Notes: generated by a model not told the origin, from the letters alone. 24,792 nucleotides of DNA from Candidatus Jordarchaeia archaeon (GCA_029856435.1 JAHQXB010000151.1:1-24792); one strand, 5' to 3'; counted from the stretch's first letter, positions 12,059-21,513 are shown. Numbers and translations are program-made.

Positions 12059-12577
12059 ATGCCCACAAAAAGCGTTGAATATTTAGACAGACTGCCCGAA
12101 ATTCTAGGCTCGATTAGCAAAATAATTAGTGATTTGACCGAAGCTTTTAGTGTAATATTGGGTGAGATTAATAATCGGCTTAAAGATATAGAGACTAAAT
12201 ACTTGGAGCTTGAGGCGCATGTGAAAAAAGAAGATTCAAACTTGAAAGGTAACCTTAAAAAATTAAAAGAGGAACAGGAGAATCTAAATAACAAATTGGA
12301 ACAGAGCGCAGCGAGTTTCCAAGTATCAATTAGAAACCTTACTGATACCCAGGTAAGCATTCAATCAAATCTAAACTCTCTTGAATCGTCCATTCAACAA
12401 ATGGATCGAAAATATGAGGATATAAATAGACTGATGGAAAAGCGCTTAATGGAAATTACGGAGAATATTTCAAATGTTATACACCCTGTTGAGAACTGGA
12501 ATAAGGAGATGAACATCATTAAAGTTGAAGTAGCTAGGCTGTCTCGCGAAATAGAAAAAAGATTATCCGGTGAGTAA
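12059..12577 (+). CDS. Coiled-coil hypothetical protein
   Basis: Heptad-like L/I periodicity over most of about 172 aa and no TM segment. Start ATG 12059 (ORF track TTG 12026). Stop lies 3 nt before the next ATG. Confidence 0.85.
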   Translation: MPTKSVEYLDRLPEILGSISKIISDLTEAFSVILGEINNRLKDIETKYLELEAHVKKEDSNLKGNLKKLKEEQENLNNKLEQSAASFQVSIRNLTDTQVSIQSNLNSLESSIQQMDRKYEDINRLMEKRLMEITENISNVIHPVENWNKEMNIIKVEVARLSREIEKRLSGE

Positions 12578-12580
12578 CAA

Positions 12581-14056
12581 ATGCTTGAGTTTGAAGATGT
12601 AGAATCAAAAAAAATTTTTCGTTTCTACATTGTGGATGCCCATCACCACTTGGGTGCAGATATTGATGGTCACAGTAATAGGAATCCAGTTGCACCAGGA
12701 GGGACCTTCGACTTCTATGTTAAAGTGGGAAAGAAACTCTCAAAGTTATTTTCCGATAAACCCCAAATTTTCAGATACAGCCCACATGGCTTTTTAAATG
12801 AATTTATTAGAAGTAATAAGAAATGGAAGGACACTCTAAATGGGTCTTGGGCTGTAGACCAAACTGTCGTGTTCCCTTTTAACGACGAATTCAAATGGAG
12901 GGAGGGAGACGAGGGCAAGGCGCTTTACTGGCGTTCCAACGACAACATTGGAAGGTGGGTGGCTCGCGCCCCTTACTCTCTAAGATTAATTGGCTTTGGG
13001 AGAGTGGTTCCCACCCAGGGAGAACTAGCTATAAATGAACTATACAGAGCAGTAAAACAATTGGGGTTGAGAGGGTTAAAACTACACCCCAGATCCGATG
13101 GTTGGAGTGGCGATATTACCTCCTCAGAAGTGAAAAACGTTCTTGTTGAGGCAGCAAAACTTAACATTCCAGTCCTCTTTGACACGCGAGGATTTGGTCA
13201 AGTGATGGATATACTCGAAGTAACAAAAATGGCTAGAAGAGAACTCCAATCCCAAAATAAAGCCTTAGTGGAAAACCTCAAGGTAATTATAGCCCACATT
13301 GGATTCCACCTGGGGCAAAATGAACTATTCGATGTGTTAAGTCATCCCAACATTTATGGTGATACCTCTGGAGTTCATGACGCTGGAATTCCAAGATTAT
13401 TCGAGGAGGCTGTACAATTATTACAGCCAAACCTTGGAAAGTATAGAAACTGGTCGGAAAAAATACTTTTTGGGACAGATTACAACTATTTTGACGTACC
13501 ACATGCGGTGCAGTTTATCTCCTTTGTGCTAGGTATGGATTTTCCGGGCACTCCCGAGGATGCCCAACGCATTCTCGGTTCTAACCTTTTGAAACTGGTT
13601 CCCCCCTTTAAGAGGGAAACGAAGGCATCCTTCAGGAAAGTACATGTCCCCCAGGAATTGGCTGAATTAACCGAAAAAACTTTAGCGAAACAAATTGCCG
13701 ATTTGGTAAGTAGTGAAATATACGAGCTTTCAAGCATTGATTTCTTTATAGATCCGCATCCTAAATTTCAAGTTAGACCCCAAGACTTCAAGATAACCAT
13801 TTCCCGAAAAGAAAATGAGAATTGTGAAGACATAAATCTTATAGTACTCTCTATGCTTGATATATTAACTATAGCAAGATTAGACAACACACTGATGAAC
13901 TCGTCACCCATACAGAACAGAATACTTAGATATGATGATGCTGCCTCCCGCAGAATCTTTTACAAAAAGCTATGGCCGAGCCGCCTTGAAAACAACCCCC
14001 AAGAAATGTACGGCTTTATAAAATCGATTATTGAAACTGAGAGTTCAAAACAATAA
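12581..14056 (+). CDS. Amidohydrolase (Amidohydro_2-type TIM barrel) with ~150-aa C-terminal extension
   Basis: IVDAHHHLG, GLRGLKLHP, IIAHIG, IYGDTS, KILFGTDY. GGTGA RBS. Confidence 0.9.
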   Translation: MLEFEDVESKKIFRFYIVDAHHHLGADIDGHSNRNPVAPGGTFDFYVKVGKKLSKLFSDKPQIFRYSPHGFLNEFIRSNKKWKDTLNGSWAVDQTVVFPFNDEFKWREGDEGKALYWRSNDNIGRWVARAPYSLRLIGFGRVVPTQGELAINELYRAVKQLGLRGLKLHPRSDGWSGDITSSEVKNVLVEAAKLNIPVLFDTRGFGQVMDILEVTKMARRELQSQNKALVENLKVIIAHIGFHLGQNELFDVLSHPNIYGDTSGVHDAGIPRLFEEAVQLLQPNLGKYRNWSEKILFGTDYNYFDVPHAVQFISFVLGMDFPGTPEDAQRILGSNLLKLVPPFKRETKASFRKVHVPQELAELTEKTLAKQIADLVSSEIYELSSIDFFIDPHPKFQVRPQDFKITISRKENENCEDINLIVLSMLDILTIARLDNTLMNSSPIQNRILRYDDAASRRIFYKKLWPSRLENNPQEMYGFIKSIIETESSKQ

Positions 14057-14201
14057 ATTGCAAAAAATAAGTAAAAATCCCCATTAATAAATTTAATTTT
14101 ATCGACACCACAAAAGAATTTAAGCTTTGAATTGAACCTTATCATAGGAAAAACCCGAAATTAAAGGGGGTCCCCTCAAAAAATAGGGAGGAAAGCAAAA
14201 A

Positions 14202-19440: not shown

Positions 19441-19457
19441 TCTCTAATACCCTCACT

Positions 19458-20243
19458 TTAAGTGAATTCTTTTTCAGCTATTTCACTAAAAGCTTGAATT
19501 AACTCGCGAATCCTGTTGGCTTCCACAATGTCACTGGTGATAGTCAAGTCTAGGATGGAAACATCAATATTTGCTGATTCCACTATCACTTTTAAGCAGT
19601 AGGTGAGGCTTCCCCCGCCAAAAACTTTGTCATCGTCTACTATTTCATAACTCTCATTAAGCAATCCCTTAAGTTTAGGGATAATATTGTGAGGGTCTCT
19701 CCGAATATTTTTGTCAACAAAAATTTTACTTTCACCGGAGGGTAACATGGGAAGCGTTCTCAAATTAACTATTATTCCACCCTTACCCTTAGAGCTGCTA
19801 ACCTTATCTATAAATAGCAGTTGAATGATTCTTGCTATGTTCTCGCTTACTTCCAATCTTCCTTCAGGGTCTGAAAAGAAAAAATACGAGAAAGGCTTAC
19901 TCATACCCTCAAATTCTTGGTAAATCTTCTGAACAATGTCAAATAGCATCTCGTCGTCCTCTCCGTAGGAGGTGGAGCAAACCGCAAAAGGAATCCCCAA
20001 ATTTTCAGTTTCGGAAACAGCACTTATTCTACCATAATTCTTGAAACTCTCCAACTCTTCCGTGACTAAGATCCTATCTACCGCCTTTTCTAAAAACGGG
20101 AAAACTTCTGTTTTATATTTCGTAATCAACAAGACTGCCTCCTCTAGGGCAACCTTATATCTATTTAACAAATCTAGGAATTCCTCAGTTACTCGCTCAA
20201 ACCTGCTAGTAATTTTCCCTGTTTCATTTTGGGTTTCCAACAT
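19458..20243 (-). CDS. Hypothetical protein; C-half resembles the N-formylglutamate amidohydrolase (Zn-exopeptidase-like) fold, catalytic residues apparently lost
   Basis: 261-aa ORF, tightly spaced in an operon, with GGTGA RBS. IIVNLRT..KVFGGGSLTY..ILDLTIT..helix parallels the FGase pattern lDlHs..N.PF.GG.IT..aiQiEi. The CDS is solid but the fold is tentative. Confidence 0.7.
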   Translation of the reverse strand: MLETQNETGKITSRFERVTEEFLDLLNRYKVALEEAVLLITKYKTEVFPFLEKAVDRILVTEELESFKNYGRISAVSETENLGIPFAVCSTSYGEDDEMLFDIVQKIYQEFEGMSKPFSYFFFSDPEGRLEVSENIARIIQLLFIDKVSSSKGKGGIIVNLRTLPMLPSGESKIFVDKNIRRDPHNIIPKLKGLLNESYEIVDDDKVFGGGSLTYCLKVIVESANIDVSILDLTITSDIVEANRIRELIQAFSEIAEKEFT

Positions 20244-20250
20244 CTGTCAC

Positions 20251-21513
20251 CTACTTACTTCCACGAAACTCATTAATCAATTTAAGAATCTCCACCTCAC
20301 GTTTCTTAAACTCCCCCAGTTGTTCATTCAGAACATTAATACCCGCTCTGATTTCCTCCACCAGCTTCTCAATTAGAGAGGCCTTTGCATCCAGTAATTT
20401 AACAGCTTCCTCTAACCCCTCCACTTTACCTAAACTAGACAATCTTGCATTTATGTTTTCAATCTTGCCTTCAAAAACCCTAATCCGGCTTATCTCCCTC
20501 TCCAAGTTTCTGACCTTCTCCTCCACCTCCATAAGTCTTTTGCCGAAAAGATTGAATGGTTTGGCATTTTCACGGCTCACAACTGTTTCCCCCTCAATAT
20601 TTTCTACTTCAGGCTTAACCAAAATCTTCTTTTCTTTTTCCACGCTTCCTTCAGCTAAGTCAGGAATGTTTTCACTCCGAATAATTTCCTGATTCACAGT
20701 TCTCACATTGATTAGGGGCTCCTTTGCAACTTCTCTTTTCGGTTCCATTCCGCTAAGATAAGCATCATATATTTCTCCCAAAATCTCTGAAATCTCCCTG
20801 TTACTTGATTCCTCACCACTAGCAGAAAACACGCAGGTTATCCTATCCCCGTGGTTTAAACCCCAAACTCCCACCTTGCCACTCCTAAACCACAAAGTAA
20901 AAACGCAGGAAGAAAATGCTTTATCTTCGAACCAGTTCTGAATAGACTTTACCAGCAGTAAAGACTCGCGGGACGAGTGTTTTCCCTTCTCCAACCCATT
21001 TCTAATCCAGGTATAATCCAATAGTCCACTCTCTGCGTTCCTCTCCAACCAGCCCGAGAATCCCTCCCTATAAATACTCAAACCTGTATACCTATAGGAA
21101 CGCTCCTCAAAGCCCAGAATTGCAAATATATGGGCAAGGATATTTTTGGTGTCTTTCTCCCTAGTTCTAAAAACACAGGCCCACTTCTCCCTACCATCGC
21201 AAACACAGCAGAGCTTCTCCCCATCAAAACTCAAAATAAGAATACAGGATAGACCCACCTTATCAATTAGAGACGAAACCACCTCACCCCTAAGCAGGTT
21301 CAAAAGCTTAACCACCGGAAAAGAATTCAAAGGATCAAGAAGAGGACCCCTAAACACACATAAACTGTGGGCTCTACCAGGATCACTTTCCAAAACCTCG
21401 AGGAACTCCGGCAACTCGTCAGTCTCAACGAAAACGTAGCCAGTAACATTCCCAAGACGTACACCATACCACTTCGTAAGCCAACCTTTCAACTCTTCAG
21501 CGTGCCTCTTCAT
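20251..21513 (-). CDS. Hypothetical protein: two related roadblock/longin-like beta-beta-beta-alpha units plus C-terminal coiled coil
   Basis: Start ATG 21513 (ORF track 21609). Internal repeat SCILILSFDGEKL..WACVF..NILAHIFAIL / SCVFTLWFRSGKV..ITCVF..EISEILGEI. Heptads in the last ~95 aa. Confidence 0.7.
   Translation of the reverse strand: MKRHAEELKGWLTKWYGVRLGNVTGYVFVETDELPEFLEVLESDPGRAHSLCVFRGPLLDPLNSFPVVKLLNLLRGEVVSSLIDKVGLSCILILSFDGEKLCCVCDGREKWACVFRTREKDTKNILAHIFAILGFEERSYRYTGLSIYREGFSGWLERNAESGLLDYTWIRNGLEKGKHSSRESLLLVKSIQNWFEDKAFSSCVFTLWFRSGKVGVWGLNHGDRITCVFSASGEESSNREISEILGEIYDAYLSGMEPKREVAKEPLINVRTVNQEIIRSENIPDLAEGSVEKEKKILVKPEVENIEGETVVSRENAKPFNLFGKRLMEVEEKVRNLEREISRIRVFEGKIENINARLSSLGKVEGLEEAVKLLDAKASLIEKLVEEIRAGINVLNEQLGEFKKREVEILKLINEFRGSK

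Follow-up and report, generated by a model that had tools for sequence, protein, structure and literature searches.

A GCS2-type ligase in a conserved Asgard gene module with an Amidohydro_2 hydrolase, a Cdc48N-VWA protein and a fourth core protein

YbdK/GCS2 ligases are typically stand-alone proteins of 350-400 amino acids (aa) without partners. A ligase of the same superfamily, the carboxylate-amine ligases of glutamine-synthetase fold (PMC7947786), is found in pupylation, the actinobacterial system of the ligase PafA, the deamidase/depupylase Dop and the Mpa-proteasome, alongside an enzyme that cleaves amides and a component for recognition, an arrangement that offers a possible analogy of writer, eraser and reader for the locus described here. 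We analyzed a stretch of 24,792 nucleotides (nt) from a Candidatus Jordarchaeia archaeon (GCA_029856435.1 JAHQXB010000151.1:1-24792; hereafter the window; G+C ~41%), which encodes a GCS2-type ligase, an Amidohydro_2 hydrolase, a protein joining a Cdc48-N-like domain to a VWA domain (the VWA protein), and proteins of 261, 420 and 183 aa (P261, p420 and cc183). The six genes form two convergent blocks, with gaps of 3 nt (cc183-hydrolase) and 145 nt (hydrolase-VWA) on the plus strand and 7 nt (p420-P261) and 17 nt (P261-ligase) on the minus strand; all six open reading frames and all four gaps were present as claimed in an earlier note made from the sequence alone. We consider it firmly established that the ligase, P261, hydrolase and VWA genes are a real genetic unit that has been inherited, duplicated and fused together. 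Close homologues of the window ligase carried the names Candidatus Freyarchaeota or Jordarchaeia, which, together with a gelsolin-domain gene in the window, marks the genome as an Asgard metagenome-assembled genome.

Linkage, distribution and ancestry of the core genes

The earlier note had proposed that the two convergent blocks make up one system. This was borne out for the ligase, P261, the hydrolase and the VWA protein by gene neighbourhoods, paralogous sets, fusions, presence/absence patterns and trees, whereas p420 and cc183 turned out to be lineage-limited accessories. The ligase, hydrolase and VWA genes occurred together in nine Asgard families (families are written here as f plus a number). 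Every f1 or f2 locus that was not cut short had the arrangement of the window, with the hydrolase and VWA genes, in that order, converging on the ligase, P261 and p420 genes, the last being outermost. The hydrolase gene adjoined the ligase gene in families f9, f21, f23 and f27, in the order hydrolase-ligase-VWA in f21 (with a 4-nt overlap of the hydrolase and ligase genes), hydrolase-ligase in f27 and ligase-hydrolase in the Loki-type families f9 and f23, all co-directional. Thor genomes carried P261 followed by the ligase, with the hydrolase and VWA genes, in that order, 4-7.5 kb downstream. The P261 gene lay directly upstream of the ligase gene in Thor-, Jord- and Loki-type genomes, and P261 is the fourth core part of the module; the protein was recognised by profile and not by BLAST.

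Gene fusions and a second copy provided further evidence of association. The protein P0109 is a natural fusion of a Cdc48N-VWA protein with the ligase (E 9e-31 and 4e-77), and fusions of ~850 aa join the hydrolase to Cdc48N-VWA. A second set was found in the window genome on contig C148, with a 1377-aa ligase (40% identity) convergent on a second VWA gene (32%) and a second hydrolase gene (33%) beyond it. The module thus exists in two paralogous forms, type A, to which the window copy belongs, and type B, whose relatives keep the hydrolase, VWA and ligase genes together.

Presence and absence of the three genes were scored in 201 Asgard genomes. The ligase was detected in 98 genomes, the VWA protein in 99 and the hydrolase in 99; all three were present in 93 and none in 98, leaving 10 with only some of them, and these partial-set genomes were 80-99% complete. 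Since related genomes are not independent, families rather than genomes were counted as evidence: nine had the module, 18 did not and none was discordant. The module is present in the Thor, Jord, Loki-type, Hod and Sigyn lineages, among others. Across Asgard families these three genes were therefore linked, with matching presence and absence; the unlinked, independently distributed homologues that the earlier note had named as evidence against its idea were not seen.

Maximum-likelihood trees of the ligase, the hydrolase and the VWA protein revealed the same deep split, separating Jord-B, f21 and f27 from Jord-A, f9/f23, f7/f26 and f6 (SH-aLRT 99-100), and the subclades were likewise congruent. 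The hydrolase profile was built without the hydrolase-VWA fusion proteins, and one genome (L114) was excluded from the ligase comparison because of its very long branch and also from the hydrolase and VWA trees. The split shared by the three trees indicates two ancient module types that were inherited as units, both of which are present in Jordarchaeia.

The excluded genome is a metagenome-assembled genome (MAG) labelled Thermoplasmata, in which a high-GC contig (5566-17448) carries one co-directional operon of a 396-aa unknown, a VWA protein, a 1250-aa ligase, an 836-aa unknown, a hydrolase and a second VWA protein. Either the module occurs outside Asgard archaea or this MAG is mislabelled. 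The type-B region on C148 (L003, 5508-19509) encodes, in order, a 733-aa VWA-family paralogue with inserts, a 270-aa protein, the 1377-aa ligase, whose tail contains a long Pro/Lys/Ala-rich basic stretch, the convergent VWA protein, a small multi-pass membrane protein, the hydrolase and a 533-aa coiled-coil protein. An 888-aa fusion of hydrolase and Cdc48N-VWA was located on contig C89 of the window genome (32441-35107), and contig C76 (2299-3594) carried a separate Cdc48N-VWA paralogue of 431 aa that has 42% identity to the window protein and is retained by every f1 and f2 genome. With the fusion counted, the complement of the window genome was two ligases, three hydrolase-type genes and five Cdc48N-VWA-type genes.

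Features of the encoded proteins

The labels given to the ligase, hydrolase and VWA protein in the earlier note (GCS2, Amidohydro_2 and VWA) were confirmed by Pfam, NCBIfam and the Protein Data Bank (PDB) (Table 1). Residues 1-470 of the ligase form a divergent GCS2/YbdK carboxylate-amine ligase domain, and residues 471-1188 form a tail of Ig-like beta-sandwich domains of ~700 aa. The catalytic domain scored 39.6 bits against PF04107 (cut-off 21), whereas all NCBIfam YbdK and GshA equivalog models fell under their cut-offs (96 versus 176 bits) with about two thirds of the domain aligned; the protein is therefore a member of the GCS2 superfamily and not a YbdK or GshA equivalog. Alignment of 13 diverse members identified E19, E21, H172, S202, P203, R230, E282, R284 and D287 as invariant, together with a conserved, family-specific Pro-Pro-Cys (PPC) motif at P121-P122-C123. 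The expected GCS2 motif positions (ExE, HxH, NSPF and ExRxxD), which in this family serve metal, ATP and substrate roles, hold invariant residues. Given the homology of the catalytic domain and its invariant motifs, ATP-dependent carboxylate activation would be expected. The subfamily is essentially confined to Asgard archaea; scores fall sharply to generic YbdK proteins at E 1e-15, with at most 30% identity over half of the domain.

The Ig-like label for the tail drew weak yet coherent domain matches across ligase orthologues, to CARDB in 18 of 29 and to MG2 in 11 of 29, and also to FixG_C and Transglut_C. A profile of the tail found nothing significant among PDB sequences (arrestin at E ~0.5; a match to MS2 coat protein was due to chance). 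Short Loki-type ligases of ~570 aa have no Ig arm, and at the other extreme one locus (L108) contained a ligase open reading frame of 2786 aa.

The hydrolase is a TIM-barrel metal hydrolase with a C-terminal extension of ~150 aa, and scored 60.8 bits against PF04909 (cut-off 26.4). Its metal ligands H21, H23, H169, H239 and D300 (HxH/H/H/D) were kept in all 22 family members.

The VWA protein begins with a disordered, Glu/Lys-rich region (residues ~1-75; model pLDDT 78), followed by a Cdc48-N-like domain (~77-250) and a VWA domain (~250-498) with an intact metal ion-dependent adhesion site (MIDAS), whose residues D260, S262, S264, T385 and D419 were invariant across the family. The Cdc48N label proposed for it was upheld by several comparisons. 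CDC48_N (PF02359) matched eight of 21 family members (best E 9e-11), the window protein itself giving no match; the family profile matched the VAT/Cdc48 double-psi barrels among PDB sequences (E 0.0015-0.03); and a Foldseek search with the model returned the N-D1 regions of p97, NSF and SPATA5, with p97/NSF at E ~1e-10. The top whole-chain Foldseek matches were the DEPDC5/Iml1 chains of GATOR1/SEACIT (E ~1e-11, ~425 aligned columns), with low TM-scores of 0.25-0.29 and with p97/NSF N-D1 nearly equal in score. At E up to 1, none of the 21 members had an IML1-type Pfam match, and the PDB sequences matched by the family profile (E up to 10) included neither DEPDC5 nor Iml1.

Family searches of P261, p420 and cc183 against Pfam, NCBIfam and the PDB gave nothing beyond coiled-coil noise. 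The model of P261 (pLDDT 86) predicts a 67-residue N-terminal helix followed by an alpha/beta domain whose fold matches the peptidase/phosphorylase-like type of N-formylglutamate amidohydrolase (FGase), PghP and pyroglutamyl peptidase I. The earlier label 'FGase-like' thus held at the level of the predicted fold and failed at the level of sequence match and of the usual catalytic residues. In an alignment of 54 members only D204 and G209-G211 were invariant, with T234 in 49 and C89 in 45; there was no conserved His column, and hence neither a His-containing Zn site nor a Cys-His-Glu triad. P261 may act as a pseudo-enzyme that binds glutamyl groups, or else as an enzyme of a non-canonical kind. 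A protein of f9 encoded upstream of the short ligase joins an Ig-like domain to a P261-like domain. The 270-aa protein upstream of the type-B ligase (B270) was not accepted as a P261 homologue (hhalign E 0.018).

The two remaining proteins are lineage-specific additions to the module, and the coiled-coil labels previously given to them were confirmed. In p420 a conserved globular domain of ~255 aa, rich in Trp and Cys, is accompanied by an acidic linker and a ~95-aa coiled coil; orthologues were detected only in the Jordarchaeia families f1 and f2, where the gene precedes those for P261 and the ligase. The label 'roadblock-like' was not supported: comparison with the 13 Robl_LC7 proteins of the genome gave an hhalign E of 0.42 (Atlas lead score 0.82, rank 14). 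No Pfam or NCBIfam match and no usable Atlas match to p420 was found, the PDB profile search returned coiled-coil matches only, and hhalign comparisons with Robl_LC7, with the VWA family and with P261 gave no supporting match. Homology of p420 to the 533-aa type-B protein (B533) was rejected, as the hhalign match (E 2e-4) rests on the coiled coil. cc183 gave coiled-coil-type matches only, and its orthologues (55-86% identity) were found only within the genus.

Table 1. Genes and other features of the window.
Feature	Position (nt)	Strand	Length	Assignment
cc183	12026..12577 (first ATG 12059)	+	183 aa	Coiled coil, accessory
Hydrolase	12581..14056	+	491 aa	Amidohydro_2 PF04909, E 2.4e-16
VWA protein	14202..15698	+	498 aa	VWA PF00092, E 1.4e-8
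Ligase	15874..19440	-	1188 aa	GCS2 PF04107, E 5e-10; TIGR02050 YbdK, E 2e-27; PDB 1r8g, E 1.7e-10
Ligase, catalytic domain	18031-19440	-		Residues 1-470
Ligase, Ig-like tail	15877-18030	-		Residues 471-1188
P261	19458..20243	-	261 aa	Predicted peptidase/phosphorylase-like fold
p420	20251..21513	-	420 aa	Trp/Cys-rich domain and coiled coil
Gelsolin-repeat gene	10787-11659	-		Pro-rich linker and C-terminal domain
Transposable element, copy 1	11839-11946		108 nt	MITE
Transposable element, copy 2	15718-15825		108 nt	MITE
Flanking metabolic genes	2966-6458 and 22266-23570			See text
Open reading frame region	23888-24493	-		Abnormal composition, overlapping frames

Clustering of all open reading frames of at least 80 aa around the ligase in 11 families identified three clusters, besides the ligase, hydrolase and VWA genes, that occurred near the ligase in at least three families: ABC-ATPase-like reading frames, a gelsolin gene and one unannotated group. 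In the genus of the window the gelsolin gene is divergent from, and adjoins, the cc183-hydrolase-VWA block. In f23 and in 29 f9 genomes of Loki type, its orthologue immediately precedes a long VWA gene (~720 aa) that runs in the same direction; the linkage was absent in f2, f6 and Thor. In two Thor loci (L097, 6603-9204; L060, 6650-9205) two OppD/OppF-like ABC ATPase genes and a ~145-aa reading frame lie directly upstream of, and co-directional with, P261 and the ligase; these were not found with the module in other families. The OppD/F-like ATPases and the intervening Thor genes (DUF92, SPFH/NfeD, Rce1-like and HEAT) were considered as module parts and attributed to lineage synteny instead. 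The genes flanking the window locus encode an AMP-binding acyl-CoA ligase, an asparagine synthase, a phosphodiesterase, a GT2 glycosyltransferase, a PHP-domain protein, an SCP2 protein and a phenylacetate-CoA-ligase-like enzyme, and none of these metabolic genes was conserved with the module.

Proposed function and alternatives

We think it probable that the four core proteins form a physical complex. Inspection by eye, rather than with a predictor, showed no obviously hydrophobic signal or membrane segment at the start of any of the six proteins, so such a complex is probably cytoplasmic. Our preferred, tentative reading, to which we assign a probability of about 0.4, is that the module carries out reversible amidation of a protein or peptide. 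The core parts would assemble as one cytoplasmic complex in which the ligase would activate a carboxylate as an acyl-phosphate and couple it to an amine, most likely forming, on a protein or peptide, an amide of glutamyl type or an isopeptide bond. The metal site of the VWA protein, its Cdc48-N domain and the Ig-like arm would hold the substrate; P261, with a predicted fold common to glutamate-recognising hydrolases, would serve as a non-catalytic or non-canonical binding subunit; and the hydrolase would remove, reverse or process the ligase product. A protein-level substrate is favoured by the genetic ties or fusions that link each core enzyme to protein-binding modules (the invariant MIDAS, the Cdc48-N domain, the Ig-like array and coiled coils).

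Several points weigh against protein or peptide amidation. No tag gene, target or AAA+/proteasome gene was annotated among the conserved ligase neighbours in the 11 families, in which reading frames under 80 aa were unclustered and a very small tag could be missed. P261 may not be inert, given its frequently kept Cys and invariant Asp. The solved relatives of the ligase, 1r8g and 1tt4, are YbdK-type, and GCS2 has been described as a gamma-glutamyl-cysteine synthetase family whose superfamily includes PafA as the protein ligase (PMC7947786). For the hydrolase, the nearest solved relatives by sequence, at weak E values of 6e-4 to 0.02, are decarboxylases, so its 'eraser' role is an assumption.

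The affinities of the two enzymes also bear on an alternative that we regard as somewhat less likely, although it fares best among the rivals, namely a small-molecule pathway. The ligase would then make an amide metabolite, gamma-glutamyl or other, for instance a peptide-like compound or the precursor of a low-molecular-weight thiol, the hydrolase would perform the next or reverse step (hydrolysis, decarboxylation or lactone opening), and the VWA protein, P261 and the Ig arm would scaffold or regulate the enzymes. Haloferax GshA makes gamma-Glu-Cys, and GshA-family matches in Asgard archaea have been interpreted as thiol synthesis (PMC7278568). The solved Amidohydro_2 relatives act on small aromatic acids, the ligase and hydrolase genes are the tightest adjacent pair across lineages, and the short Loki-type ligases do without the Ig arm. 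However, metabolic enzymes are rarely linked or fused to a MIDAS-VWA/Cdc48-N protein throughout a phylum, the ligase is far from generic YbdK and under every NCBIfam cut-off, and no transporter or further pathway enzyme was a conserved neighbour in at least three families.

We judge rather improbable a second alternative, a regulatory or sensor scaffold, in which the VWA protein would be the functional centre and the enzymes would provide metabolite-sensing or -modifying inputs to a cytoskeletal or GTPase-linked switch. The domain layout of the VWA protein resembles the front half of DEPDC5/Iml1, its top Foldseek matches, and a published description likens the DEPDC5 N-terminal domain (NTD) to NSF-N and its SABA domain to a domain of Sec23 (PMC8534245). 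The gelsolin gene stands directly upstream of the VWA gene in Loki-type genomes and beside the plus-strand block here, and NPRL2-like longin proteins have been reported in Thor MAGs (bioRxiv 10.1101/2020.10.19.343400). In contrast, neither Pfam nor the PDB profile search provided a sequence link to DEPDC5/Iml1, the TM-scores were low with p97/NSF N-D1 nearly equal, and the gelsolin gene, besides its patchy linkage, was present in 183 of the 201 genomes irrespective of the module. The invariant catalytic residues of both enzymes also point to real chemistry. Returning to protein amidation, its most specific form is a long shot in our view: an Asgard-specific, ubiquitin-independent reversible system with the ligase as writer, the hydrolase as eraser and the VWA protein as reader, the reader belonging to the archaeal stock ancestral to the NTD-SABA region of DEPDC5/Iml1, a scaffold of eukaryotic nutrient signalling, and with targets possibly linked to gelsolin/actin.

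That the blocks are unrelated chance neighbours, the fallback offered in the earlier note, or were joined by the miniature inverted-repeat transposable elements (MITEs) that bracket the plus-strand block, has a negligible likelihood: the convergent orientation does imply separate transcripts, but the arrangement recurs in relatives and in the paralogous set, the genes form co-directional operons and fusions with conserved linkage and congruent trees elsewhere, and the MITEs represent independent insertions. The two MITE copies, which differ at one base, bracket the block exactly. Their 9-bp target duplications differ (TATACAGTT and TTTTATTTC), and ~85 near-full-length copies are spread across the genome, indicating two independent intergenic insertions; the MITEs were therefore rejected as the cause of the gene arrangement.

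Comparison with described systems

Full-text literature searches identified no paper describing the combination of ligase, P261, hydrolase and VWA protein, in agreement with the earlier statement that no described system has this composition; the module, which is real and conserved, has no description in the searchable literature. About half of the sampled Asgard genomes encode these proteins, with intact catalytic sites and docking domains of eukaryotic flavour (Cdc48-N, vWA and Ig-like). Should the module modify proteins, its post-translational chemistry would be new and would stand at the boundary between prokaryotes and eukaryotes; should its product be a metabolite, the pathway would be an unusual, scaffolded one. 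A cultured species, Candidatus Lokiarchaeum ossiferum, also encodes the ligase, whose function may therefore be open to experiment.

Pupylation differs from the module in several respects. Its ligase belongs to the Pup-ligase family, whereas the ligase described here belongs to GCS2, and the module has no PafA/Dop pair. The eraser of pupylation is a paralogue of the ligase, whereas the candidate eraser here is a TIM-barrel metal hydrolase. Pup, the AAA+ protein Mpa and the proteasome have no counterpart among the conserved neighbours of the module.

The VWA protein shares with the NTD-SABA half of DEPDC5/Iml1 (Sea1) a Cdc48/NSF-N-like domain followed by an alpha/beta domain, a likeness of fold and order only. 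It differs in keeping a complete MIDAS, in having no SHEN, DEP or C-terminal (CTD) domains and no detectable sequence similarity, and in its conserved partners, which are the ligase and the hydrolase rather than longin proteins. P261 compares with N-formylglutamate amidohydrolase, PghP/YndL and pyroglutamyl peptidase I in its predicted fold, and departs from them in sequence, in having no conserved His and in its extra 67-residue N-terminal helix.

The hydrolase shares the TIM barrel and all five metal-ligand positions with the Amidohydro_2 enzymes (ACMSD, LigW and gamma-resorcylate decarboxylase; PF04909), and differs in its weak similarity to solved members (E 6e-4 to 0.02), its C-terminal extension and its fused forms with Cdc48N-VWA. 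The catalytic domain of the ligase is homologous to, and shares motif residues with, the YbdK/GCS2 ligases (PF04107; TIGR02050; Escherichia coli YbdK, PDB 1r8g; Haloferax GshA), from whose stand-alone members it is set apart by the PPC motif, the ~700-aa Ig-like tail and its obligate gene partners P261, the hydrolase and the VWA protein.

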